A stretch of 42,538 bases of DNA. It comes from Rozella allomycis CSF55. Taxonomy: Eukaryota. Made by a program: the position numbers and the translations under genes. The stretch lies in the NCBI GenBank assembly GCA_000442015.1, contig KE561122.1, positions 1 to 42,538 on the forward strand, written 5' to 3'. Positions 2,056-41,339 of the stretch are shown in pieces. Numbering within the stretch: the stretch's first letter is position 1; every line of letters starts with the position of its first letter. Below the pieces are notes generated by a model, which searched no databases, was not told where the DNA came from, and worked only from the letters and a program-made list of their open reading frames with translations.

Positions 2056-2776
2056 ATGACAGAAAATGACGAATATGACAATAATACAGTCGATGAAACA
2101 GCAACCGATATTCAGCAAAATCAAGATGATTATAATCTGGATCTCTTGACTTTTCGTGATATTGGGGATCAGGCGCATTGGATGCTGAGTTCAAGGAAAA
2201 TGGGGTTCGGTGTGGAAAATTTACGCGATGATCAGGTTGAAACGTTTTGGCAGTCGGATGGCAATCAACCTCATTTAATCAATATCATGTTTTCAAGAAA
2301 AACTTCGGTTTATGTAATTAGTATATTGTATACTAATACATAGGCGCTGGCAGTATATTTAGATTACAGACAAGATGAAAGTTATACGCCGCAAAAGATA
2401 CTTATTAGGGCCGGTTATACATACCATGATTTACAAGTACTTTAGAATGGATAGTATGATTAGGATGTATGCCAAAAGGAACTTAATGAGCCATGCGGTT
2501 GGACATTATTCCCGTTAAGTGATGATGAACAGTAAACATTTATCGCTTTTAGAAAAAGAATCGTTCAAATCCACCTCATACAAGTTGTGATACTCANTTC
2601 ACCTCATTCAAGTTGTGATACTCACAAACCATCAGAACGGAAGAGACTCCCACATTCGACTGTTAAAAGTACTTGTACCCCGAAAACAGAATTTTGGTAA
2701 TGATGACGAGGACTCCAAAAGTGAACAGATAACTAGAAAATACGAAGAAAGTCAATTTTATTCCATTATCAGATAA
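2056..2776 (+). CDS. APC10: Anaphase-promoting complex subunit 10 (Doc1), 3 introns; assembly N plus duplicated segment at 2571-2624
   Basis: Motifs 'WMLSSRKMGFGVENLRDD..TFWQSDGNQPHLINI', 'LDYRQDESYTP' and 'NHQNGRDSHIR', plus a C-terminal IR tail (…YSIIR*). Confidence 0.95.
2571..2624. other. Assembly artefact: about 25-bp duplication around a single N (2597)
   Basis: cacctcatacaagttgtgatactca N tt cacctcattcaagttgtgatactca; removing one copy restores the APC10 frame. Confidence 0.85.
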
Positions 2777-2823: not shown

Positions 2824-3421
2824 TCATACAGTTTTTGATTGTAGAATTAAAGCGACAATTAAACCATATAGACCCAACACTTCAGCAAAAATGAGCATCA
2901 AGACCATTGCCACGTAAACTCGAGATTCTTTAGCAAAATTTCTAACAGAGGAATCTCCCACAATTCCAACAGTCCAGCCTGCTGCAACACCTGATAATCC
3001 TACACTGAGACCAGCTCCTAAATGGGCAGCACCAGATTGAAGAGAATAATTTTGATTTGGCATTACAAACATTAACAAAACATTTCTTTACTTGATCCGG
3101 TAATAAGAACTGCCACAACTAGCCCATAAATACCGATAATACCAGCCATAACAACTGGAATTAACGATCGCATTATTAATTGAGGTTTAAACGTACCCAT
3201 ACCAGCAATACCGATACCTAATATGGTCAAAACATTATTTACATACCTTTTAATAAAAGTTATTTTCGTTACCTGATTTAGCTGTGCCATAGGCCGCACC
3301 TAACGCTAAATACAAATAAAGAACACTGTTTACCACAAAATATCATTGCAAAGGTTGCACCAGCAAAACCAAAAAATGGTGCATAGGGTGGACAGCGTTC
3401 TGTATATTCAAACACATCCAT
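2824..3421 (-). CDS. VMA11: V-ATPase 16 kDa proteolipid subunit (c/c', Vma11-like)
   Basis: Spliced '[66 protein letters not shown]'. Needs a tandem intron (3218-3272) and a GT-TG intron (3066-3091). The c' versus c assignment is less certain. Confidence 0.9.
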
Positions 3422-3612
3422 TGCAAAGGCTTTGTATATAGAACTGAAACGTGGCTTGACTTGATGGCTGTGGACTCAAGTGTAAGGGTTCCAACATTTT
3501 TTAATTAAAATCTCTTTTACAATCAATACTAGATCTTCCATGTAATTGGGATAATTGGTGATCATAGGTCTCGAGTTGCTTTGCCACACATTAGCCACTC
3601 TTTTTTGTGGAT

Positions 3613-3954
3613 ATGAATCCCCAGAATAACGTCACCGTAAGAGTGATTTTAACAAAATTAAACAGTATCACTCGTATCCAAAATATAACACTGCAACTGA
3701 ACAGAACGGGAACTTGTATAACCGACAAGCAGGCACTGTCCCGAATCTACCGGTCACTTACACAGATTACGTATATCCAAGTAAGCTATATTATTGATTA
3801 ATTAAATAGCTCACGCTAAGGCGAAAAAGGAAAAGAAAGAAGACAATACATGTTTAGGAATGTAAGACGCGTAAATAAAACTAAGAAAAGATTGGCGGGC
3901 GCTTTGTGCTTTATTTGCATAGCAGGAACAGCCGCTATTGGGGGCAAGAAATAG
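3613..3954 (+). CDS. Small CYSTM-like tail-anchored protein, 3 introns (missed by ORF track)
   Basis: Spliced MNPQNNVT|YHSYPKY…TDYVYP|THAKAKKEKKEDNTCLG|ILAGALCFICIAGTAAIGGKK*. Three canonical micro-introns, and a C-terminal 'CL…GALC..C' module. Confidence 0.65.
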
Positions 3955-3994
3955 AATTTTGAAATTTATCAGAACCAGTGTAACAATGAGTGGA

Positions 3995-4799
3995 TTATTT
4001 AATAAAATTGTCTTTATAATTAATCAATGAGGCTGCATCAATATCCAAAAGCCAAGTACTATTTGAATTAATTTCACTAACGATTCCCGCTGGATATTTC
4101 ATTTTCTGGTCTTTTTTAAAAATGTCTTCAATAACCTTATTCTTTGAAGCACCGGTGACCAGAAAAACAACATTCTCACACATTTTTAATGCATTCAAAG
4201 TCAGGGTTATTCTTTTTGGTGGAGGCTTTGGTGAATTTTCTACATAGTCAAGAAATTCAACGCTTCGAAGAATATCATGGTCAGGAAACAGTGAGCAAGT
4301 ATGTCCGTCAGGCCCCATACCTTAATGATAAAAATGTACTTGCAATACCTAACAATGCACAATCAATTATAAGACTTGAACCGGTACATGGCAAGCCTAA
4401 CTCCTTCCATGTTTCCCTCATTTGCCCATAATAGTTTTCGCAAACCTTTTTCGTGTCGTTTAAAAATTCACTATTTATTTTAATGAATCTAAAGGGCTTT
4501 ATATTTGTGGATCCAAAAAGTTCCTGAAAGTAAAATGACTCTTAATGTTTTACGTTATCAATTAATTTTGCATTCGAGTCATCACTATCATTTTCTACAC
4601 ATCTTTCATCTGCCAATAAAATGATCCACTTGGAAAAGTTTTCCTTGTTAACGTTTTTCAACAACAAGGGCAAAGACCCACCAGATATTGCTATAGTAAA
4701 GTAATTTGATTTTTCTAAAGCCTTAGTTTCTAGCTCTTTTAAAATTATTGCTACTCTCTCACAAATCCCTTCTTTCCCTGAAAACACCTCCAATTTCAT
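3995..4799 (-). CDS. PGLS: 6-phosphogluconolactonase (Sol3/PGLS family), 2 introns
   Basis: Motifs 'FTIAISGGSLP', 'LADERCV…SN', 'LLGMGPDGHTCSLFP' and 'SPKPPPKRITLT'. Confidence 0.95.
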
Positions 4800-20316: not shown

Positions 20317-22638
20317 TTATTGACCAAAAACGACAGCCTTTAAGATTTTTCTAATTCCTAGCAATACTTTGGGCCGCTTTTTATAATCATAGAAGCAATT
20401 TACTGTTCCATCGATAGACAAATCATCTGTACGAATATTAGATATGACATCACTATGATGTGCAGTGAAGAAGCTCTTGAGTTCACCAATATCTAAATTT
20501 TCAGTGGATGCAAAGTTTAAACACTTTTTGCTTTCTTTAATGTCTAATTGAACTAAAAGTTTAGTTATAAAATCTAATTTCTTATTTAGTTCTGCTCTAT
20601 ATTTCTCTAGTCCGTGATCAAAAGATTTATTTAAAGCCAACGCCTTATTAGAGACATAAACTCTCACTACTTCAATTAATTTATGTATTTGGTTAAATGT
20701 GTCTACAACGTAACCTTCTTGTTTGGCTTATAAATGAAAAATCACAATAACTACCTTGTTGAGTGTAAGGATAAGCCAGAATGGCATCACATAGTAAATC
20801 TTTTAAAATAACTTTCTTTACAAGAGCATCACCTAAATTTGCTTTGAAAGAATTCGCGACTTCAGAAGTAATTTTCAGTGCGTCAAGAATATTACTTTGA
20901 ACAAAAAGTCGCGTAATGGATTACCTGCATATTAACACTGTATTGGTTCCAATTGAGTCTAAAATATTGGATGTGTAGATTATAAGAGATGATGGCTTAA
21001 CTTGAATATCGCCTATAAAATTGTCCTTTTTTAAACAAACTACCCTGTTTATAGATTGTTTCAAAGATTGGATGAATAATTGATTTTAGAAATATTTGAA
21101 GGCAGTTGTCTGACAAGTATTTAAATAAAGTGATAGTAAGGCTTTTGCTGCTCAGAATATTCCTCCATGAAAGTTCTTTATAGGTTCTTAATTGAACTTA
21201 CCCAATTCAAATGATAAAATTTCCATTAAGAGATCGTTCAATTTTGAATATGAAAGAAATACTTTCATGATATTTTGGATGACTAACTGTCGGTTTGAAA
21301 ATGGCACCTTTGTCAGGGTCAAAAATACAGGTTTTAGTATTGAAGGCCTTGAATTTATAAAAATCTTTTCTTGCATTGAAAGAAAAGTTACATTTATAAT
21401 GAAGGTATCTTCTATCGACTCTTTTGGCCAGCTAGATAACAGAAATTTAGTCTTTTCAATTGAGAATGTCAAAGATACCGATTCTTTGTCTTTTATTCGT
21501 TTCACAGCTGGAAAGAGGCAATAATAAAGTAATTGTGAAAGATCATCGATGAATTCCAAGTTTTGTTTGCCTATTGCTTTCACAATATTAAAGGTTTGGT
21601 TCCAAACCTCATTTATTGAAAATTCCATTAAATTTTACCACATTTTTCATTATTCATGAACAGCTTCATTTCTTCGTATGTCCATGCCAACTTCCCCTCT
21701 TCCAAACGAAATAATTGATTGGAATCGAAAATCGCTAGCAATTTAACAACAGAAAAGTACTCAAAGAGAATTTCAGCAAAATTCCAATCTTTTATATAAT
21801 TTTCACCTTCTATTATTATTCTATTGACCTTTTCAATGGAAATACAGTTGAATTCATGCATTGCAAGCTTTGGTAAAGTTATCTTTTGAATGTGTTGATC
21901 ATTTTTGATAATAAATTTGTATATTATTCTAACTAAGGTATTTTTTTGGTCATTCGTCAAATTCATGTTTTTTAAAACACTGACATTCTCGTCCAGATTC
22001 ATTATAAGCCTCTTTACACTTTCAGACATCTCCATTGATATATTAACATAATACAACTTTTGTGATCCGTTAGTTATGTCGGGGTCTTTGTTTCCTACCA
22101 CTTCATTTCCTTCAAGGCTACAATTTGATAAACACAAAATGTTGTCAATGTCATTTTCTTCATTCCTATACGGTGAAGCCTTATTTTATTTATTCTTGTG
22201 AAGAAATTACGGGATATTCAAATGTATGCGGCTTTATGAAACTGTTATTCTCTACTGTTTGTCTCATGTTCTCTCTTGTAATAATTTCCTCTTGCATGAT
22301 TTCTAAATTTTTAGTTAATAAAGATGGTGATGGGATTCGATACACGGGCTTAATATCATTGTAATGGACTTCTTTTTGGACTTCGCTTTCTATCATATCA
22401 AAATTCAATAACACTATGGCGTCCCTTTCTTGTTCTAAATGGTCTTTATTTGACACCGCTAATTTATTTTTATTCGGAATGATATTGACGCGCTCTTTAG
22501 GTTTACTGTCAACATCAACAGGAATATTCTCGTGCAACTGAGCATGCCTATCCCATACCAAACAGATCATTACAATTTTGATAAATCATGATATGTTTTG
22601 AGTCTTGATTTATCCCATGCAGCTTTATCCAAACTCAT
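20317..22638 (-). CDS. Multi-exon protein with a degenerate NF1-type RasGAP domain (pseudo-GAP), about 7 introns
   Basis: Micro-introns join ORFs 22190-22570, 21628-22137, 21188-21628, three short exons and 20317-20667. 'VPFSNRQLVIQNIMKVFLSYSKLNDLLMEILSFELELSWRNILSSKSLT…FLKSIIHPIF' aligns by eye with the neurofibromin GAP-related domain. The junction at about 21610-21638 is uncertain. Confidence 0.55.
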
Positions 22639-28137: not shown

Positions 28138-31100
28138 TTATTGACAAATGAAATGGGTTCTTCTTTTGATCCAATGCTTCACAGGAACATCAGAATTAAC
28201 AAGAAAAAAGATACCAACGAGATCCTTTTTAAAAGCAAGACTTGAAAGAAATTCATATCCAAATCCAAAATCGAATTGATGATATTCTTGATACCCAATA
28301 CCAATTGAAGGTTGATCGAGAGAAGACCAGAAAAGGGGACATTTAAATTTCGTGTGAATTCTTTTTGATAGATTCTGATTCTGATTTGTTAATTTCACTT
28401 TTTGGGTGGAAAACTTTTGTGGATTTACAACTGGTTGAATCCAAATCTATTTAATTAATAAAAGTTGGTTACGCAAGGAATTTTGCAATTGAATTCATTT
28501 GATTTGGCGTCTCTCATGTTGCCTCTGCCGAAATCCCAAACAGCGTTTCTTAATGATAAACCACAAATGTAGTATCCTTTGGTGGCTATTGTATTTTGTT
28601 TGGTGGATAAAATATTCGCTTCGAATTCCAGTAACTCCATAGGCTCTTTAGATTGCGTTGAATGATCTTTTAAGAATGCTATTTAAACATAGTGTAGTAA
28701 ATTACCTGCCAAGAGAGGCTCAGGGTGAATCATTTTAGAAAAATCGTGAACAATTGGCCATTCGAAGCCCTGGTGTTTTTGATTGTACCATTCATTAACG
28801 TATTCTAATCTACTGACGAAATTAGCAATCCAAGATGAAAAAGAAAACCAAATATTGCTAGCGAATGGAAAATCACTTTTTAGGAAATTTGGGAAATTGT
28901 CAGAATTAACAGAGTCAACAAATTGATTGATTTTATTTGAAAAGGGAGTGAAAGATCTGATTGATTGTAAAGTTTGTTCTATAATTTCTATTAGTAATTT
29001 TAAGCAAGAGTGATATTTAGTGTAATTGGAATAAATGATAGAATCCGTGCTAGAAGAGATTGTAAATTCAACATTCTTTTGAATGATGCAAGCGCTCAAC
29101 TTTGCAAGCCATTCTTGTAAAATTGGAACGACTTTTTGAACTTTTGATTCAAATAGAATATTAAAGTTTGTTTTTTGAACTGGCAGGATAATTGATAGTA
29201 AATGTAAATATTTAGAAGAGTTTAGAGCATCTAGAGCAGATGAAGCGACTTCTTGTAATCCAATTAAATTTGGAGAGAGTTTTTCAGGTAATTTTTCTAG
29301 AGCGATTTTGATTGTTGAATAATCTTGAGCAGAAATTAGAGAATGATAAAATTCAATTAGAGGATTGAAAGAGATTAAATCGTCTGAAGAATCTTTTTCA
29401 TCCCATTCAGAGGAAATGATTTCAGAGATGAACATTTGAAGAATTTTGAAATCTGATTGTTCAACAATTTTGGAAAAGACAACTTGAAAGATTGGAGAGA
29501 GAGAATCTCTTACTAATTTTATTGCTTGACCTTTTTGATATTTAGATTGTTGGCTGTTGATTGAATCATTTGATGAATTTAAAGCTTCTTCTTCAAAATC
29601 AATTTCTTTTGAATAAAGTTGAATTATTTCTCTTATTCTTTGAATCATTAAAATTAAATCATTCAAAGTAAAGTTATAATCTCTACTAAATCCATAAAAC
29701 TTGAATTGATTTCTTTCAATTAACACAACTAGAAGCAGAAATGATTGAACTAGAATCTAAATAAACAAAAACTAGTTACTTTACCTTTTTCATTACAAAT
29801 TTATTTTGTGAAATTGCATTAGTTAAATGAGAATGAATAAATTCATATAAAAATGAAACTTTTTGTTTAAAACTCAAATGAGAAATTTCCAAAATAGTGA
29901 AATTGCATTTTTCAAATATTTCAACAGAAAAATTAACACTTGCTTTATAATCACAAGACATTAATAACTTAAAATTTGATTTTACTTTTAATGAATCAAC
30001 AATTGCTAAAACTTTATTAATCAAGTCAATGGATTCATGAATATCTTGAAGATACAACCATTTCCCTTTCTCAATGCAATCCATTAATGTTTCATTTAAA
30101 GATTTAAATTCAGTAAATTTAGAAATTAAAACAGATTGAACAATATTCCCCTTTTCATTCTTTTCAGCAATTATTTTCAACGTTTGATAAACATCAATGT
30201 CATTTCTAGTAATAAATAGAAATTGATTTGTTGATGAAATATTTTCATAAATTTTATCAACAAGAGAAAATGATGAATTTTTATTAATGTCACAATTAAT
30301 TCCCTTCAATTCATCCCCTAGTGGAAATTCATTGATAATACTGAAAATTGCCTTTTTGAAACATTCAGGTTTAATTATTCTCAAAACAATCAATTTTTCC
30401 AATTTATTTAAATTTTGATTCGACTTGCCTGGAAAGATACAATTCTCTGAATCCTTGTTACATTGTAATTCTTCCCAACTAGTTTCTTCAATTGGAGTTG
30501 TAGCCTTGTTGGCGTATTTGCTAAACTCTGCAACCAATTTACTAAATTTCTGTAGTTGGCCAAGATGACAAATAGATTCCCATGATTTCTTATCAAGCCA
30601 TGATGCAGCTGGATTCGGTGGTATTTCATTACAAATTACTTCTTTGCATTTTCCATATAACAGAAATTCCCAGTATTCAGATGGAATATTTTCATTTGAA
30701 GATTTAATAGAAATATAAAACATCAAAAGATTAAAAATGGAATATTCAAGCTTAGAATTCAAATCTTTTAATATAAATAAACTAAACTGTTTAAACCAAT
30801 TAGCATCAACTTCATTTGTGAAATTTCTGAAATATTCCAGAAAATTATTTAGATTGAATTTATAGCAAGAATGAATATTTTGTAATTTATTTAATAGTAA
30901 ATAGAATTCAGCAGCAGATTGAAAAATATTTCTCTTCTTTTCAGATCCAGAGAGTTTAAAGAATTCTTTCTTCATGCTTGTTAATTGAATGACTTTTTTG
31001 CGATAATTTTCTTCATAGTGAGCTAAATTGTAAGAAGTTTCAGTGAATTGAGATTTGTCAACATCGCATAGACCAACTTGTCTTAATCTTTCTTCGCGCT

Positions 31101-34100
31101 TTAAATTTTGTTCAAAGTTTATCATTTCAACATACAGATTGGTGTATTCAGTTTTAGCTTGCAAAGAAGATTTGTTTAAATGTTCATTGAATAGTAAATG
31201 AGAAAGATTCTTTTTATTGAAATCTAAAAATAGAATTGAAATTCTTTCGTCTTTGATAAAATCATTTGGAATGGAATTTGAATAAAAGATAGAAATTGGT
31301 CTGAATCCAACTCTTTTTCTTAATAATTCATTGTTGTAGAAATTGTTTATTAAATTTGAATTTATTAATAGCAATTCAGATGGTTTCAAAAGAACATGTA
31401 AATCTTTTAAATCATTTGAAGTTAAATTGTTTAATGGAGAATCTAGACCAAACATTGATAGAAAATGATACAAGCCACAATGGGGGTCTAGAACAAGAAT
31501 TGGTTTAACAGATTTAATGTAAATCAAGATATTTTCTAATAAATCCAAATCAAATTCAACAGTTAAAGTTTTCTGAAATAGATTAACTTTGTAATCTTTC
31601 AAGAGTAGAGAAAGAATAAAATCTAGTGGATCAATGATTAAATTCAATTCATTAAAGATTAAATTTAATTTTTCTCTTATTTGAATTCTAGAGAATGAAT
31701 TGAATTGACCAAATAGAACAATAATTGATTCAACGTATAAAGAATTTGAGAGACAACGAGACAAGAGTTGATTTTTATCTTCAAGTGAATCTTTCCATCT
31801 TTTTATTAAAGAAATTAATTTTTCTGAATTGCTTAAAGTTTCTTGATATATTTTTTCAGTTTCATTTATATTTTCTTTAATTAAATTTTTTCTTTTTAAT
31901 AGATCATCTAAATCTTTTGTTAGATTAGATTTCTTAATTTCTAGAGAATTTATTCTATTTTTTTCATCTTGAATTGAATTGTTTATTTTTTGAATATTTT
32001 TTTCTTGAATTAATAAATCATCATGAATCTTTGAATTGTCAAACAAAGTACATTGAAAATTATAAATAGAAATAATCCAATCTCTCAAACAATTAAATTC
32101 TTCAATAAATTCAACTTGAACGCTACTTTTAAAAAATTCATATTCAAAAATTGAATTAAATTTATTTTTATCATTCTCATTCAAAGTAAAATTTAAAATT
32201 CTTTCATAGAGATTAATTTTATTATTTTCATTAAAGAAAAAACTTAAAAATGAGATTAATGATCTAACATTGGAATTTAATGAATTATTTAAATCTATCC
32301 ATTTTTCAAAACTAATAACTTTCTTTACATTTTTAAATTCATTCATAACAATTATAGATTGAGAATTTATCTTTTTATTGTAATTATCTTTATCAATTTG
32401 ATAATTTTCTAATAATTTATTTAACGAAATTTCCAACTTTTGTTTTCTGATTTCAACTTCTTTTAAATTATCTCTAACAAGATCAATTTGTTTTAAAATT
32501 TCATTTCCTCCAATTGTTATTTCATTAAATTCATTTTGTAGATTTGATAATTGTAATTTTAAATTTGATAAATGTTTTTCACAATCTGTTGCTTTAATTA
32601 AAGATTTCTCAATCATTTCAATTTCTTTTTCAATTGGAATGGAAAATTCTCTATAAATCTCCAATGTTTGAACTTGGAAATTTACTAAATAATCTTCAGA
32701 AATTCCAAATTGAAAAGCTAAATTTTGTTTTAATTAGATTTCAATTACCAACTTGTTTCAACTTTTCATAAAATATGGAAACTAGATATATTTCTTCATC
32801 ATTCACTTGATACTTAGGTTGAATATTTCTCTCCAAATAAATAACCCTGGAATTAATCAGAAAATTCTCTAATGTTTTTGGCTCCAAACAATTCACAAAA
32901 TGAACATTATTTCTAAATTGTTCATTCAACAATTTCATTCCTTTGATTTCAATTCAATTCAATCATTTTACCTTGTTCAATTGGAATTTGTTTATTAGTT
33001 GAAAATGTCTTTATTGCATTTTCTGTTAAATCAGATTCCAATATTTCTGTTATTTCACTTCCAGATAAAAATTTATCAATCATTTCATTCTCTTCTTCAA
33101 CATACACACAAAATTTATTATTAAATGATTTATAAACTATCGAATCAAAACATGAAAACAACACATCAAACGTTAAACCAGAAATATCACTCTTTTGATG
33201 TAAACTATTTTTATCACGCTTATTATTTTGTTCACGATTTTCATTGTTATTGACATCTGCAAGTAATTCTTCTCCACTCATCCCATTCAATTCTTCACCT
33301 ATATTCACTTCCCCATTCTTCACTTCTCCATTCTTCACTTCCCCATTCTTCACTTCACTTTTCAACTCTTTCTCAACTATATCTCTCACATCATTCTCAA
33401 CTCTTTTCAATTCAATTTGACAGATATCACACGCTTTTCCAACACACTCAAAAAAATAATCACAATCCAATTCAACCACCGTAACATTACAAGGGTCAGT
33501 CACCAGCGAATTACAAATATTAAAAACATCCACAGCATTTTCAATACTCAAATCAGGATGATAATTAACAATCTCAGTCACAGAATAGTATTCCCTCTTG
33601 ATCAATATACTATGCGAATATTGATACAAGTAAATAGTTGACTGCCACTCTTGCAACACACTCGTTGGAATATTCAAGTTTTTGCAAAATATATCAATTA
33701 TTTTGTTCTTTTCATTCGTTTGGAATAAAATTCTGTCGAGTAAATCTATAAAGAAAGATTTAATGAAAATATCGTCCAGATTGGAACATAGCTTCAGGGT
33801 TGTATTCAAACTACATAAAACATCATTGAAATTAAATGAATAATACAGATTGTTGTTGAAACAATAAGCATTGGTAGAAACTAGTGAGAATATTTGTAAT
33901 ACACATTGAATCATAAAGTCTATCAAGTCATGGTCATTTGGAAAACTTTTATACAATTTCAATTTTAATCTTTTAGAAAGTGTTGAATTTACATCATCGT
34001 GCATGTTAATTATTATTGAATGCGTTGAATTCAAAAAGTCTAATTCTTCACATGTTGCATTTGTGAAATTTACAAAAATTAAATCTGATTCAACGCTCTT

Positions 34101-37100
34101 TATTCTATTGTCATCAATGATAGTTTTATTATTAATAAACGGAATGATATTATCATCAATCGTTCCATGTATATTCAAAATGGAATTCTTTTCAAAGAAT
34201 ACAGATTTAGCTCCAATGGATGAAGCCTTTTGAATAACAATATCAGACAGTGAATCTAAACATGTATAATCATCATCATTTGAATACACCTGTTGCTCTT
34301 TATTATACTTTGCATGTGATACTTTAATTGGTATAGACTTACACTTGAGTGCTTTGATAACCTGTTCAGCCAATACAAAAGATTCAGGACCAATAAGAAC
34401 AATTCGACTACCGCTTCCTTTTAAAATTCTAGACAGATAAATCAACTTTGAAAAGTCATTAAATTCACTTTGAAAATCATCAACTTCATTAAACTGAGAA
34501 TGATCAGTTTCTCTCTTTTCATTAAACAATGCCCAATCATTTATAGTTTCATCATAGAAAATATCAAAAACAGTAGAATCATCTCTTGGAAGACAGGGGA
34601 ACAGATTATTCCAATCAATAACTGAATCAATTCTAATTAAATTTCTTTCATGGTACAATGTTTTGAAACCTTTATCGAATATTCTGTTTCTTGTATAATC
34701 AACCCTTGCACCGAATGACCATATAATGGAAAATAGACAATTAGCGATTATCCATTTTTTCTGTTCGTTAATTGTTAATCTTTCATAGTTTTTGCCAATG
34801 TTGTTGCAGAGAGATGCGAAAATTGATTTAAATTGAATGAGAACAGAGTTTTGACAGAAATTTGATAAGCCAAGTTTAGAAGAGGAAATCAAGTCATCCA
34901 CTTGACTCAAGAGAATGTTTATTAGTTTATTGCTAAAGTTTGAATTGTCTAGAAGAATTTGATTGGAGTTTATTAGAAAATTTATTATTGAAGATTTGAA
35001 GTTTGATTGATGAATGAATAGCCAAGGAGACTCAAAGTGTTTGGTTAGAGAATCTACATCAGATAAAGAAGTAATGGATGGTAACATTGAATCATTAATA
35101 CAGTCATCAATCAAACTGAAAACCAGTTCATTATCTTGAATTTCAAATACTAATTTAATTCTCTTCTTTGATATAAATGATTTAATCTTTTTGAAAGAAT
35201 TTGCATTAAATTTTCCAGAAATATGAAAGATACAATCAGAGTCTCCCAAATCAATTAAAAGAGAATTTATTATTTCAATAATATTGTGAACCCATGGAAT
35301 TTCTGTAATTGTATTTAATGTTTGTTTTATCAATGTTGATTTAAAAGAAAATGGTTCACCAAAAACAAAAGAAATTGAATTATTTGTTACTAGTCTTTTT
35401 ATTTCACTTGAGTAATCCATTTTAGTTTCATTGAATAAAGTTTCATTGATAGAATTTGAATACAATTCATTAAAAATATTTAAAGATTTCTCAATATTTG
35501 AAATTGATACTTTTGATTGTAAGAAATCTTTTAGAGAAGAAAAAATTAAAGAATTTTCATCAAGATTTTGATTTTTATTTGTGATTATTTTACTTGTTAA
35601 TTCAAAAAGAAAAAATCTATTTATAGAAACAGAATTTTTCAAAATAAAATGAAAAGAAATTAATTTTCTAGAAATTGAAAAACTATTTTTAAATCCATTA
35701 ATTTTCAAGATCATTTCAATTAGATTAAAATAATCTAGATCTGAAAAATTTAAAATTCTTAGAAAATTGTTAAATGAAGGATCTATAGATTGATCTATTT
35801 CTTCTTGATGTAAAATTATTGCGTGATCTAGAGAATATTTAAATGTTTCATTTTGGAATTTTATAGAATCTGATCTATTTAAATTTGCCATTGATAAAAT
35901 CTTTTTCAACGCCAACAATGAATCTGAATTTTTATTCAAAACATCATAATTAGAGTTATGCTTGAGAGAATTGTAATTTAAATCATTAGAGTTTATATTA
36001 GAAAATATACCTTTGATAACTAACCATTCCTTTAACATTAATGAACCTTGTTATACCGATAACAAATGAATTTACCTAACATTAATGTTTATTGCTTTGA
36101 TTACCTTTGATGTAATGCATGAAATTGTCACTCTTGTGGTTTAAATCTAAATAGATAATAGATCTTCCAGTAACAAGTGATAATTCATTCAACAAAATTT
36201 CTGTTAAATAATTTGTAAAGAATTACCATTTCCTTTGAATACAAACAATGAATTTTCATGAATAGATTCAAATAGATCAATAGATGATTTTTTAAAAGAA
36301 AATAGATTTGGAACAATTTTAATCATCTGATTTCCATATTTAATTTGATTAATTCCAACTTTTACATAAATTTCATTTTGATCTGTTGAATACACTTTAA
36401 TCATTGTTAACCATTCTTGTTCGATATACCCTTTATTCAACAAAATGTGAATAAATGTTTCAACTAGATCCAAATTATATTCAATCAATGAAATCAACAA
36501 TTGATATTTGATACTTAAAGTTGAAATGGTTGAAGTAGCTGAAATGGAAGATTCATTCAACTCTACACTTTTACTACCTTCACCTCTACTATTAATTCTT
36601 TCAATTTCTTCTTGAAGGGATTCTCTTTCTTTTTGTAATCTTCTCTTGAATTCTTTAAATGAATTGATATTCTTATTCAACATTAATTGTTCATACTCTC
36701 TTGTTATTAAGAAATTAAAAGACAAATAAATCATTTGATAAGAAAATTTAATAATCCAACTTCCAAACCCTTTCTCTTTACATTCAACAATCACTCCAAC
36801 AGATTCTCTCTTTATATTATCTTTAATACATTCATCTAATCTATTAATTAAATCAACTAGATTATATTCAAACACTATTGGTAATTTAAATTCAAAATAT
36901 TCAAAACTAATTATTCCTGTTACTATAAATAAATCACTCGTCAAGCCACTTTGACCTTTCAAGGGTAACAAATAAGATTTATCTTCAAATTTATTTGATT
37001 TCAGAAATTCTAAATATTCTTCTTTTATTTTACAAACAACAATTCTACAATCAAAAGGAAAACATCCATTCAAATCAACCAAATAGAAAGTTTCATTCAA

Positions 37101-40100
37101 TCTAACAAATCTATCTTTTGCTCCTTGAAATGAAATTATTCTTCCACACAAATTCATTATTTCTTCATCTTCTTGAAATATCAATCTTGGACATTTCTTT
37201 TTCATCTCTTGAATAAACCCATGCATTTTATTATTCAAACTTTTAGCTTTATTCAACGTTTCTTCAATATTAGAAAATATATCTTGATTTTGAATAAACA
37301 CCAAACAATTCCCAACCCTTGTTAAAATATCAAAATATGAATTATAAAGTTTTTCAATCAAATTAAATTCATTCCTTATTTTATCTCTTTCTCTCTCACT
37401 CTCCATTTGATAATAAAATACACTAAATAGATTAGGAAATATATTGGAAATTTCAATCAAATTCATCAAGATATTCTCAGATCTTATCAATTTAATATTC
37501 AACTGACTCAAACTCATTTCTCTACAACTAAATATCAATGAATTCAAAAGCAAAAGAATTTCACTAGAATTTTCAATACAAATTATCGATTTGTTCTTAT
37601 TAGAACTTTCTTGCTTGTTCAGATTATTAATGGATCCTTTAAGATTATTTACACTCTTCTTGAGTTTTCTACTTTCATCCAACTTTGATTCCCCTCTCAT
37701 TTCATTTACTTGTTTAAACTCTATTGTCATATTTCTTAACTTTGCTTTAACAATGTCAGCCTCTTCTTGTATTCTAGCTTCCATTGTTGCCATATCACTC
37801 AGTTCTACAATCATAGATCTCTGCAAGTCTAAATTCAATTCTATCAACTCTGCCAACGTCAATGTCTTTATTTTATTCACAGTCAAGTTCAACTGGCTCT
37901 TTAACAAGTTCCAATGCTTGTCTCTCAACTTTTCATTTCTCAATCCTCTAATCAAAAACAAATATCTAGCAAAGTTTTCAACTTTAATTCCAACAATTTT
38001 TAACGTCTTGTCCGGTCTTTTCACTTGTAATTCTCTAGCTTCAACTTCATCCAACGTCTTGCGAAAATTTCTAATCTTGCTTTCTATTTCTTCTATCGAA
38101 AGATAATAAAATAGCGATTGCAACCATTTTGGTATACTTTGCATCACATCACTCACTAAATTCCAAACAATCTCCAAAAATAGAAAAGTATTCAGGAAAT
38201 CTTCCAATTCATCAAAATTGGTTTTATCCATTTCTAAATATTCCTCCCTCTCATTAACAATCTTAATGCTCTCATATACTTTATCATATCGCTCTCGTAT
38301 TTTATTAACAATCATCGCCATAAATTCATACTTGCCAACTTCATCACAGGGAATCACATACTCCAAAATCTCTCGTTTAAAATCATTTAAACTTGATTTA
38401 ATAAACTCTTTATCAATCTCCAACTTTTTCATCAAATCTCTGCGAAAACTCTCCACATTGTCTTTTGCTACAGAATACAACATGCCAACCTTTTGTGGCC
38501 ACTTGAATACTTTCCAATACAATTCATTCAATTCCTTGTTCATTTCAAGAGAATTATTTTCAAAAATATCATAAATCATTTTAATCTCGTTGAATTCTTC
38601 TTTTAATACATCCACACTCTCATTGCTATATTTATCCACATTGGTTTTTAACATTTTCCATTCTTTACTCTCTCTAGGCAAAATATCCATCCCTTTATAC
38701 ACATTTGAATAATACTCATCCATTTTCATACAAATACCATGCATTCTGCTTGACATCTTTTTGATTATAAAATCCAACACTGCTTGGCACTTTTTGATCA
38801 ACATCTTTTTAATTTTAAAACAATCAACTTGCAAGGGAGCCATACTAACAGTATCACTGCTCAAGTATAAAATTTTCGTTCTTGCCTTTGAGTACCTCTG
38901 GGCCATTGCATCCAATTCTGTCAACTTTAAATTGTCCTCCTTTATCTCATATTCCAAAATAAACTCAAATTCCTTGTATTCACTCAACATTTGCTTGACT
39001 TTCGGATAACAACTTTTTAACACTTTCAATAGTTCATCGGAACCTTTGCTCATGAATNATCGGAACCTTTGCTCATGAAATCCTCGATTTCTTCTTCTTT
39101 AAAAGGCTTCAGGTAATTTACGCTTAACCCTATGTGATTAAACATTACATTTTCTATATTCATCACACATTCTCTGCAACTCTCCAATGGTAAATGAAAT
39201 AACTTTATCAAAGAATGCTCCAAGGCTGCAAAAGTGGGCTTTAAAACTATAGAAGAGAAGGATTTTTCGCCTTTATTCATTCCGTCTGTTATCCCCTTTT
39301 CTGGCTCACGACTTTGTATCACACCAATTGTAACTGTAAATAGAACAGGAACACTTTTCCCCTCTGATAATGAACTAATAAATGTATGCACATTATCTAA
39401 TGATAGATCAGAGTCACTCAAACTAACATTCCCCTCTTTAATCTCGGTTCTAATCATCATTAACGACAAAAAATAATTGGCCGAACGCATTATCAATGTT
39501 CTTACTTGAGTCTCAAACACAAAATTTAATAGCCTCAAATAATTCTTCAAACGACTATTCTCAAACGCCCTAACGCTTTTTGGATTCAAATCAAACGCTG
39601 TATTCAACTTCGCATAGATGATTTCCAATATACTTCTTGGCCATTTCAGACTCAACTTGCTTTGTATGCTCTGTGCATGCATCGTCAATTTTTCTTCCAA
39701 ATAATAAAATGACACTGGAAAATTGTTAATCTTGAAATAGAAAGTTTCCTGTAAAAATATTTCCTCAAAACATTTTATTATTGAGACTGTCGCCTTTTGT
39801 ACATCTGAATTAGATAAAAACATGTGAGAGGAAATTTCATGTGACACTTTGTTGAACTGAGATACCAAGTATTCTTTAAATTTTGGCTCTTTGACTTGCA
39901 AGTTGTCAGCGGCTATCACAGCGAATTTGCTTATATTTTCAACTTTGCTTTTCTTTTTCTCCTGGCGTCGATCATTCTCACTCTTCTTCATGCTAAAAAT
40001 ATTATCAATCTCACATTCATAAAAACATTCTCTCAATATTTCTTTCCCTCTTTCTGTCAATCTTTTCACACCAATCCTCTCTTTAATCCCCTTTTTCATA

Positions 40101-41339
40101 TTCTCAGAAATGGTGCAATATCCTTGATCAGGTTGTTTATCTATTTCTTGAAGTAGTTCCATTTCAGCAACGAATTGGTCGCGCAATTTGCTAGCGTTTT
40201 CCAATCTTTTATAGAACAAATCCCTGTTATCGTGCTCAAAAAATAAATTTAATCTTTTAGCACTCTTGATTACACTTGAATTAGTCCACTGTATTTTGAA
40301 AAGCTGGCTGTTCTTGTCATATCCTAGCACCTTACATGGGTACCATTCCCAACTTCCACTTCCATTTCTATGGTCAAAATATCTATTACTTTAATGGTAA
40401 ATAATTACCTAGAAAATGCTAATATACCATCCTCACCATTTTCAAGGGCATCTGACAGGACTTTGACTGGATCAATAAGTTCTTGTTCTGGATCATCGAA
40501 TAAATCTATAGAAACATCTTTTATCTTTATTTCAGACTCACGAAAGATGGATGACTTAATATTCAGCTTTGCTAAAAATTCTTTCTCTGTCTTGGCCTTG
40601 TACTCCGGAATATCCACAACTCCCGCCAACTGTATGTCATAATTCATACTATCTGAACAATCCTTTTCATGTATCATTTTTTTAACGTCCATAGAAAGGG
40701 GAGGAGCTGGGGGAACAATCGTATTTGCATTTCCCATTTTTGAAGTGATGTAATCATCAATAGATTCAAAATCGGTTATCATTCGTAAACTACTCTCTAT
40801 CTTGTTTGTGATTAATATTATACCTTCTTTATTTGACACGAATGCTGTTGATGGGCGTTGCTTCATTAGTAATGATTCCGCCTTTCTTAAGACATGGCTT
40901 TTGGGTACACGACTAGAATAAGGTCGGCCCTTAAATTTGAGTAAAGGCTTATTATTATTGGATTTTTCATCTCGATTATCGGATAATTTATCAGAGCATA
41001 TATCATGAACAAATCCAAGAGCATATGTACTTGATGATTGAAACGTGCTTCTCCAACCTTCCTTATTTTTTGTCCTGGCTTCTATTGCGGTTGATGGTCT
41101 CTTTTTCTTTCCCAGATACTCTTTTTCCACCATATTCAATGCGTTTTCCCAAGCGCTGGAATCAAATGTGACAACTCCCCGTGTAAATGAAGTTGCGGGC
41201 CTAGATTTCTGAGAGGTTTTATCTTGGGCCTTATTTTTTTCTTCCGACTTTGTCATTCTTGACATTAAATGTTTGTTTACATCCTCCAGAAGTGGAACAT
41301 AAATTGCCTGTCCTGGCAAATATGTTTCTTAATAGCCAT
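28138..41339 (-). CDS. Highly divergent axonemal-type dynein heavy chain (DNAH1-like N-terminus, degenerate motor), about 10 introns; assembly N at 39058
   Basis: N-terminal 'WYPCKVLGYD…KRLNLFF'; tail/linker 'LRNEKLRDKHW' and 'CPRLIFQEDEEI'; stalk coiled coils; 'NPAASWLDKKSW', 'GYYICGLSLRNAVWD' and the C-terminus 'HWIKRRTHFICQ*'. The start is uncertain: ATG 41339 needs a 23-nt intron, otherwise ATG about 41256. Confidence 0.9.
33297..33356 (-). repeat. 15-bp coding tandem repeat (about 4 copies, EVKNG) inside the dynein gene
   Basis: Repeated (c/t)ccattcttcacttc units on the + strand; translation EVKNG-EVKNG-EVKNG-EVNIG. Confidence 0.9.
39036..39080. other. Assembly artefact: about 21-bp duplication around a single N (39058)
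   Basis: atcggaacctttgctcatgaa(t) N atcggaacctttgctcatgaa(a); this falsely splits the dynein ORF (MSKGSD appears twice). Confidence 0.88.

Follow-up and report, generated by a model that had tools for sequence, protein, structure and literature searches.

Two abutting mini-introns around a probable zero-length exon in a V-ATPase subunit c gene of Rozella allomycis

We describe a 55-nt interruption (3272-3218, minus strand) in a V-ATPase proteolipid gene of Rozella allomycis CSF55, a cryptomycete parasite of Allomyces; the interruption is made up of a 26-nt GT..AG unit (3272-3247) directly abutting a 29-nt GT..AG unit (3246-3218). The reading that we favor, with a probability that we put at about 60%, is that these are two adjacent spliceosomal mini-introns around a zero-length exon and that they would be removed by two consecutive splicing reactions. 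The exact split into units of 26 and 29 nt had been claimed in an earlier note on this DNA; it is borne out by the minus-strand sequence and by DNA contigs from two runs of different studies (X1, covering 3100-4720, and X2, covering 3193-4720), which show 0 differences over the 55 nt. Positions throughout are those of the window, i.e., the whole 42,538-nt stretch of DNA that was analysed. The coding sequence was assembled by coordinates (exons 3421-3334, 3305-3273, 3217-3092 and 3062 onward), and the features of the gene are as follows.

3334-3421, minus strand: exon 1 of the V-ATPase proteolipid (subunit c), with its ATG at 3421-3419; the model begins MDVFEYTE, like deposited P0007
3306-3333, minus strand: intron 1, 28 nt, GTAAAC..TTTAG; a length of 28 nt gives the model the same spacing as in 10 of 10 other proteolipid sequences (..FCALGAAYG)
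3273-3305, minus strand: exon 2, 33 nt, encoding ..[12 protein letters not shown]
3247-3272, minus strand: unit 1 of the pair, a 26-nt GT..AG candidate mini-intron with donor GTAACG and 3' end AAAAG
3218-3246, minus strand: unit 2 of the pair, a 29-nt GT..AG candidate mini-intron with donor GTATGT and 3' end TTAG
3092-3217, minus strand: exon 3, 126 nt, encoding IGIAGMGTF...VLITGS
3063-3091, minus strand: intron 3, 29 nt, of typical length and with a typical donor (GTAAAG), its 3' end being AA, not AG
2824-3062, minus strand: exon 4, with its stop TGA at 2826-2824; 100% identity to P0007

The product of this gene is the 16-kDa proteolipid (subunit c type) of the vacuolar proton ATPase. PF00137, the Pfam family of the V-ATPase 16-kDa proteolipid, subunit c/c', is precomputed for P0007, which is deposited under the name V-type ATPase, and for its relatives. 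Exon 4 matches solved V-ATPase subunit c chains at an E value of 2.5e-23 (6vq6_g), is 60-72% identical to other proteolipids and, when aligned with homologues, is seen to contain the FAEVLGLYG stretch of the last helix, which we take to be the site of the proton-carrying glutamate. The four-exon model has the full four-helix length and aligns end to end with 10 homologues, a result that requires intron 3 to be a 29-nt intron ending in AA.

That the whole 55 nt must be removed had also been claimed, and the protein bears this out: (i) with the 55 nt taken out, AKSG|IGIAG reads through without a gap, as in V-ATPase subunit c; (ii) across [19 protein letters not shown] the exon model aligns gaplessly with deposited Rozella P0007 as well as with every one of the 10 other proteolipids compared; and (iii) retention of unit 1, unit 2 or both leads to a premature in-frame stop within 10 codons. 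The stretch sits at a phase-1 position and is flanked by ...TCAG upstream and GTATCG... downstream, and the AG of unit 1 directly adjoins the GT of unit 2 inside sequence that, judged by homology, is absent from the mature mRNA. By eye, there are only two AG dinucleotides in the 55 nt, one at the end of each unit. Read from the sequence, exon 2 joined to the inner site would give CAG|GTATGT and would thus recreate a 5' splice site; the GTATGT hexamer is also the donor of two curated introns. The suggestion that a micro-exon had once been lost at this position did not hold up, since the protein alignment is gapless across the junction and the joint misses no residue. Recent tandem duplication of one unit was likewise considered and rejected, the two units being, by eye, unlike each other beyond their AT-richness. 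At this locus, RNA run X8 yielded only matches of 24-40 nt, each of which runs on into dissimilar sequence, and no splice joints. A metagenome scan with P0007 returned 80 loci, all at most 61% identical and with uninterrupted matches; neither a close Rozella relative nor an intron to compare was found among them.

The significance of a 55-nt interruption depends on how long introns in this genome normally are. We inferred 54 other introns in the window, all of 21-31 nt with a mean of 27.9 and a standard deviation of 1.7 (21 nt, 1; 26 nt, 9; 27 nt, 12; 28 nt, 12; 29 nt, 13; 30 nt, 4; 31 nt, 3), in a census that was built on open reading frame junctions and on the reading of conserved proteins, was confined to GT-AG introns and may miss introns beside very short exons. 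Curation was aided by eIF2-gamma, 6-phosphogluconolactonase, APC10, Rad21 and DRG, which were read by their conserved motifs. Against this background, the 55-nt stretch has about double the usual length and each of its halves has a normal one, both units falling within the short-intron class of the window (GT..AG ends, 21-31 nt). A scan of all frame-compatible GT..AG candidates at open reading frame junctions, up to 150 nt, gave the same picture in that candidates with a GTA donor peaked at 26-29 nt (7-10 per nt, versus no more than 4 per nt above 31). These lengths are in keeping with two published accounts, one of which gives R. allomycis introns as about 30 nt (PMC6349667) and the other of which reports 29 bp as the lowest fungal intron median in a set including Rozella (PMC8042348).

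With regard to how such short introns might be recognised, 28 of the 51 curated introns examined contain internal AGs, and it seems that the 3' site is set by distance and not by the first AG. A TRAY motif at 5-16 nt from the 3' end is present in only 23 of the 54 introns, and no clear branch-point consensus emerged; each V-ATPase unit, for which the earlier note had claimed a branch-like motif of its own, happens to have one. Splice-signal scores are of little discriminating value, as decoys reach 1.3 bits at their 95th percentile and unit 2 scores 1.3-1.7 bits. Unit 1 scores 3.2 bits (curated median 3.8), and both V-ATPase units lie inside the range of the curated introns. Intron length is divisible by three in 17 of the 54. 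The shortest intron in the window is a 21-nt GT..AG intron in an APC10-like gene (2532-2552, plus strand), which is in frame and contains a stop, and it fits the spacing expected for APC10 proteins.

A plausible scenario for removal of the 55 nt starts from a spliceosome that would recognise introns within a narrow length window of approximately 26-31 nt. Given such a window, the AG at 3247 sits exactly where the 3' splice site of the first donor would be expected. Either unit could be removed first and both orders would give the same mRNA. During transcription unit 1 would be likely to go first; exon 2 would then be joined to GTATGT, the resulting donor CAG|GTATGT would serve for splicing of unit 2, and the process would amount to zero-length-exon recursive splicing. 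If unit 2 went first, unit 1 would retain an intact acceptor in AG|GTATCG. Two spliceosomes would hardly fit on 55 nt at once and, therefore, the reactions would be expected to be consecutive. That the inner sites are used, and in which order, is what we infer from this arrangement.

We also looked in the window for further interruptions above 31 nt, using a gene-chain script that allowed introns of up to 70 nt, followed by hand review (a 200-nt version fused neighbouring genes). The script proposed 10 introns longer than 31 nt, among which those of 58 and 62 nt are composites and one (50 nt) falls on an N-containing duplicated stretch. The other seven were rejected as false joins of neighbouring genes or because a 28-31-nt alternative exists; among these, a 48-nt proposal was judged by position only and a 41-nt proposal has a 31-nt alternative that was read by eye. 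In sum, all three stretches above 31 nt that must be removed (55, 58 and 62 nt) are split by AG|GT into pieces of normal size (26+29, 29+29 and 31+31), and this suggests that Rozella may splice its longer interruptions in two cuts. The features of the second and third pairs are as follows.

36076-36104, minus strand: unit 1 of the second abutting pair, 29 nt, in a dynein-like gene
36047-36075, minus strand: unit 2 of the second abutting pair, 29 nt, in the dynein-like gene
21608-21638, minus strand: unit 1 of the third candidate pair, 31 nt, in orphan gene O9G_003801
21577-21607, minus strand: unit 2 of the third candidate pair, 31 nt, with a weak donor (GTTTGG), in orphan gene O9G_003801

In the second pair, the 58 nt at 36104-36047 constitute the shortest GT-AG removal that links a 96-nt open segment to the long open reading frame ending at 36050. 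The pair counts as a case because the 96-nt segment (36200-36105, minus strand) is taken as an exon, a putative assignment that draws on its being open in frame and on the preceding intron (36226-36201), which has a typical length of 26 nt. Its codon score is low (3.0 bits, at about the 6th percentile of true coding windows), and no homologue that would confirm it was found; a search of 1.84 billion representative proteins gave one partial match. Of the flanking parts of the gene, 35301-36050 had no match among solved structures and 36207-37406 had only a marginal one, far from the junction. The dynein-heavy-chain-like gene as a whole is very long (28138-41328, minus strand), with only weak Pfam matches (E 2e-23 to 3e-8), and for a 400-residue part of it no relative was found among the 1.84 billion representative proteins. 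GC content falls to 25% across 30-38 kb of the window. At about 39040-39100 in this gene an N is flanked by a repeat of about 21 nt, and at about 2570-2610 in the APC10-like gene an N is flanked by a short direct duplication, where both DNA runs omit 28 nt; these N-flanking duplications look like assembly artefacts.

The third pair is weaker, with its poor inner donor and an ambiguous 3' end. No single short intron bridges the junction of O9G_003801 at 21571-21638; for 25 codons to stay open on either side, with the upstream frame correct, 62-71 nt have to be removed. The deposited O9G_003801 protein spans the junction and matches a 68-nt candidate ending at 21571 (31+37), not the 62-nt one. 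With two complete head-to-tail mini-introns in the V-ATPase gene, a narrow distribution of intron lengths, and one clear and one weaker further case, the zero-nucleotide exon architecture put forward in the earlier note is supported.

The strongest competing explanation, which we consider unlikely on balance and yet worth weighing with care, is that the 55 nt form one ordinary intron, which one reaction would take out between the donor at 3272 and the acceptor at 3218, with the branch point in the 3' half and the inner AG|GT left unused. The inner AG|GT would then be there by chance or as a trace of the intron's origin, such as the insertion of a new mini-intron where an exon-intron border already had an AG|GT. 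The annotation takes this course, as deposited P0007 joins AKSG to IGIAG and, therefore, treats the 55 nt as one intron; the internal AGs in over half of the Rozella introns examined mean that an AG is not always used. Spliceosomes of other organisms generally tolerate longer introns. The abutting pattern by itself is also not rare, since a raw scan of the window found 3 abutting pairs where shuffled windows gave a mean of 1.45 by chance, and two pairs (4375-4349 and 40436-40409) were discarded because their upstream "unit" is coding sequence. As the pattern alone is not rare, the signal stems from the requirement that the whole stretch be removed. For a random intron with the base composition of the curated set, the probability of being split by an AG|GT into two units of normal size is approximately 0.008-0.019 for 55 nt, 0.010 for 58 nt and 0.002 for 62 nt.

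Several observations count against a single step: (i) an intron of 55 nt would lie about 16 standard deviations from the mean of the 54 others; (ii) the distance between the first donor and the inner AG is precisely the preferred one; (iii) inner sites that went unused should decay, whereas they are kept in all three of the long stretches, with a joint chance put below 1e-5 even without the weakest case; and (iv) folding of the 55 nt with their flanks gave an RNA no more stable than shuffles (z = +1.2) and no fold that joins the outer sites. For these reasons we continue to favor removal as two mini-introns.

A broader version of the two-step scenario is that the Rozella spliceosome has a hard upper intron limit of about 31 nt and that longer sequences throughout the genome would be chains of abutting mini-introns, for which recursive splicing would be obligatory. 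We hold this only tentatively and think it may well prove too strong. Under such a limit, intron lengths would be expected in multiples of approximately 28 nt. A point against two-step removal is that most spliceosomes have a lower length limit and are not known to have an upper one.

A second alternative is that this copy of the gene is decaying or mis-assembled, in which case the 55-nt stretch and the AA-ended intron 3 would both be damage in a redundant paralogue. Intron 3 is the main reason for considering it. In the assembly it has no AG acceptor, there being no AG between 3086 and 3019 on the minus strand, and its AA end raises the question of whether this V-ATPase copy is fully functional. 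Among the DNA contigs listed, breaks occur at about 3042, 3100 and 3193, and the contigs of the DNA runs are interrupted between about 3043 and 3099, around intron 3; a second allele or paralogue may therefore confuse this spot. Contigs of runs X1 and X6 share 3114-3163 (exon 3) and then run on into a different, AT-rich sequence that is also proteolipid-like; this suggests a second subunit c/c' gene or an allele with a near-identical segment. We nonetheless regard decay or mis-assembly as very improbable: all four exons are open, exon 4 keeps both its similarity to other proteolipids and the FAEVLGLYG stretch, the DNA of the 55 nt is identical in two independent runs, and the abutting design recurs in unrelated genes of the contig. 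A regulatory device, in which removal of only one unit would yield a premature-stop transcript and so tune the level of the proton-pump subunit, is the least probable explanation of all and one to which we give almost no weight, since the stops met on retention of either unit, which are what it would need, are a general rule for retained tiny introns, there is no sign of regulation and the same design is present in unrelated genes.

The deposited protein itself departs from our model at two introns. P0007 (138 aa) is 2 residues short at intron 1 relative to 10 relatives, which implies that a longer intron was used there, and at intron 3 it is without 20 conserved residues, which make up the loop and the beginning of the third helix; it looks mis-modelled, as though the choice at intron 3 had fallen on a long canonical GT-AG intron. 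For this lineage, a narrow length window needs to be built into the intron model that gene callers use.

Recursive splicing is usually viewed as a help for very long introns. If two-step removal is true of the V-ATPase pair, it would be the smallest recursive splicing known, and it would provide a simple test system for distance-based choice of the 3' splice site. If it holds as a rule, the spliceosome would be measuring introns with a tight ruler. There is also a possible bearing on intron gain, in that a new mini-intron inserting at the AG|GT of an established border could produce an abutting pair.

There is precedent for intervening sequences that take two reactions to remove. The stwintrons of filamentous fungi and Lipomyces are described as complex intervening sequences excised by two consecutive standard splicing reactions (PMC7138796; PMC5639578), and two-step removal is what we propose for the Rozella pair. 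The inner intron of a stwintron interrupts a splice signal of the outer one and, therefore, the outer intron comes into being only once the first step is complete; in Rozella, by contrast, no donor, branch or acceptor of one unit is interrupted by the other, and the units lie side by side, each complete from the start with its own GT and AG. Genomes with ultra-short introns provide a different kind of comparison. Ciliates, with introns of about 25 nt (PMC5014332), and myxozoans (PMC13644364) resemble Rozella in having a very narrow distribution of intron lengths near the physical minimum, and term searches of these two papers found no mention of abutting, recursive, tandem, adjacent or zero-length introns. 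In the literature that we searched on Rozella intron length, short or tandem introns and tiny-intron genomes, no abutting mini-introns are described.

The arrangement itself is close to the ratchet points of recursive splicing at zero-nucleotide exons, which two studies report from Drosophila and mammals (10.1101/006163; PMC5126111). As in those systems, a 3' splice site lies directly before a 5' splice site, the whole stretch is absent from the mRNA and the donor would be recreated by the first step. Unlike ratchet points, which belong to very long introns and are backed by RNA data, the Rozella stretch is 55 nt long and its pieces are of minimal-intron size. The claim that AG|GT sites of this kind are known mainly from very long animal introns thus needs a qualifier, because zero-length-exon splicing has also been shown in two fungi. 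Spliceosome profiling revealed recursive zero-length-exon splicing in the 375-nt BOT1 intron of C. neoformans (210+165; 10.1101/224170) and zero-length-exon splicing in the 336-nt SPNCRNA.445 intron of S. pombe (10.1101/226894). Since such splicing is already established at 336 and 375 nt, the Rozella pair would be a much smaller variant of it. The likeness is that in each case an intron annotated as single in the fungal lineage, and long for its species, is, or in Rozella would be, made of two around a zero-length exon; the difference is that BOT1 and SPNCRNA.445 are 6-7 times longer, are isolated among thousands of introns and are proven by profiling. Rozella, in contrast to these isolated cases, presents 2-3 cases among approximately 57 intron sites of one contig, and this recurrence hints that in Rozella the arrangement is the rule rather than the exception.
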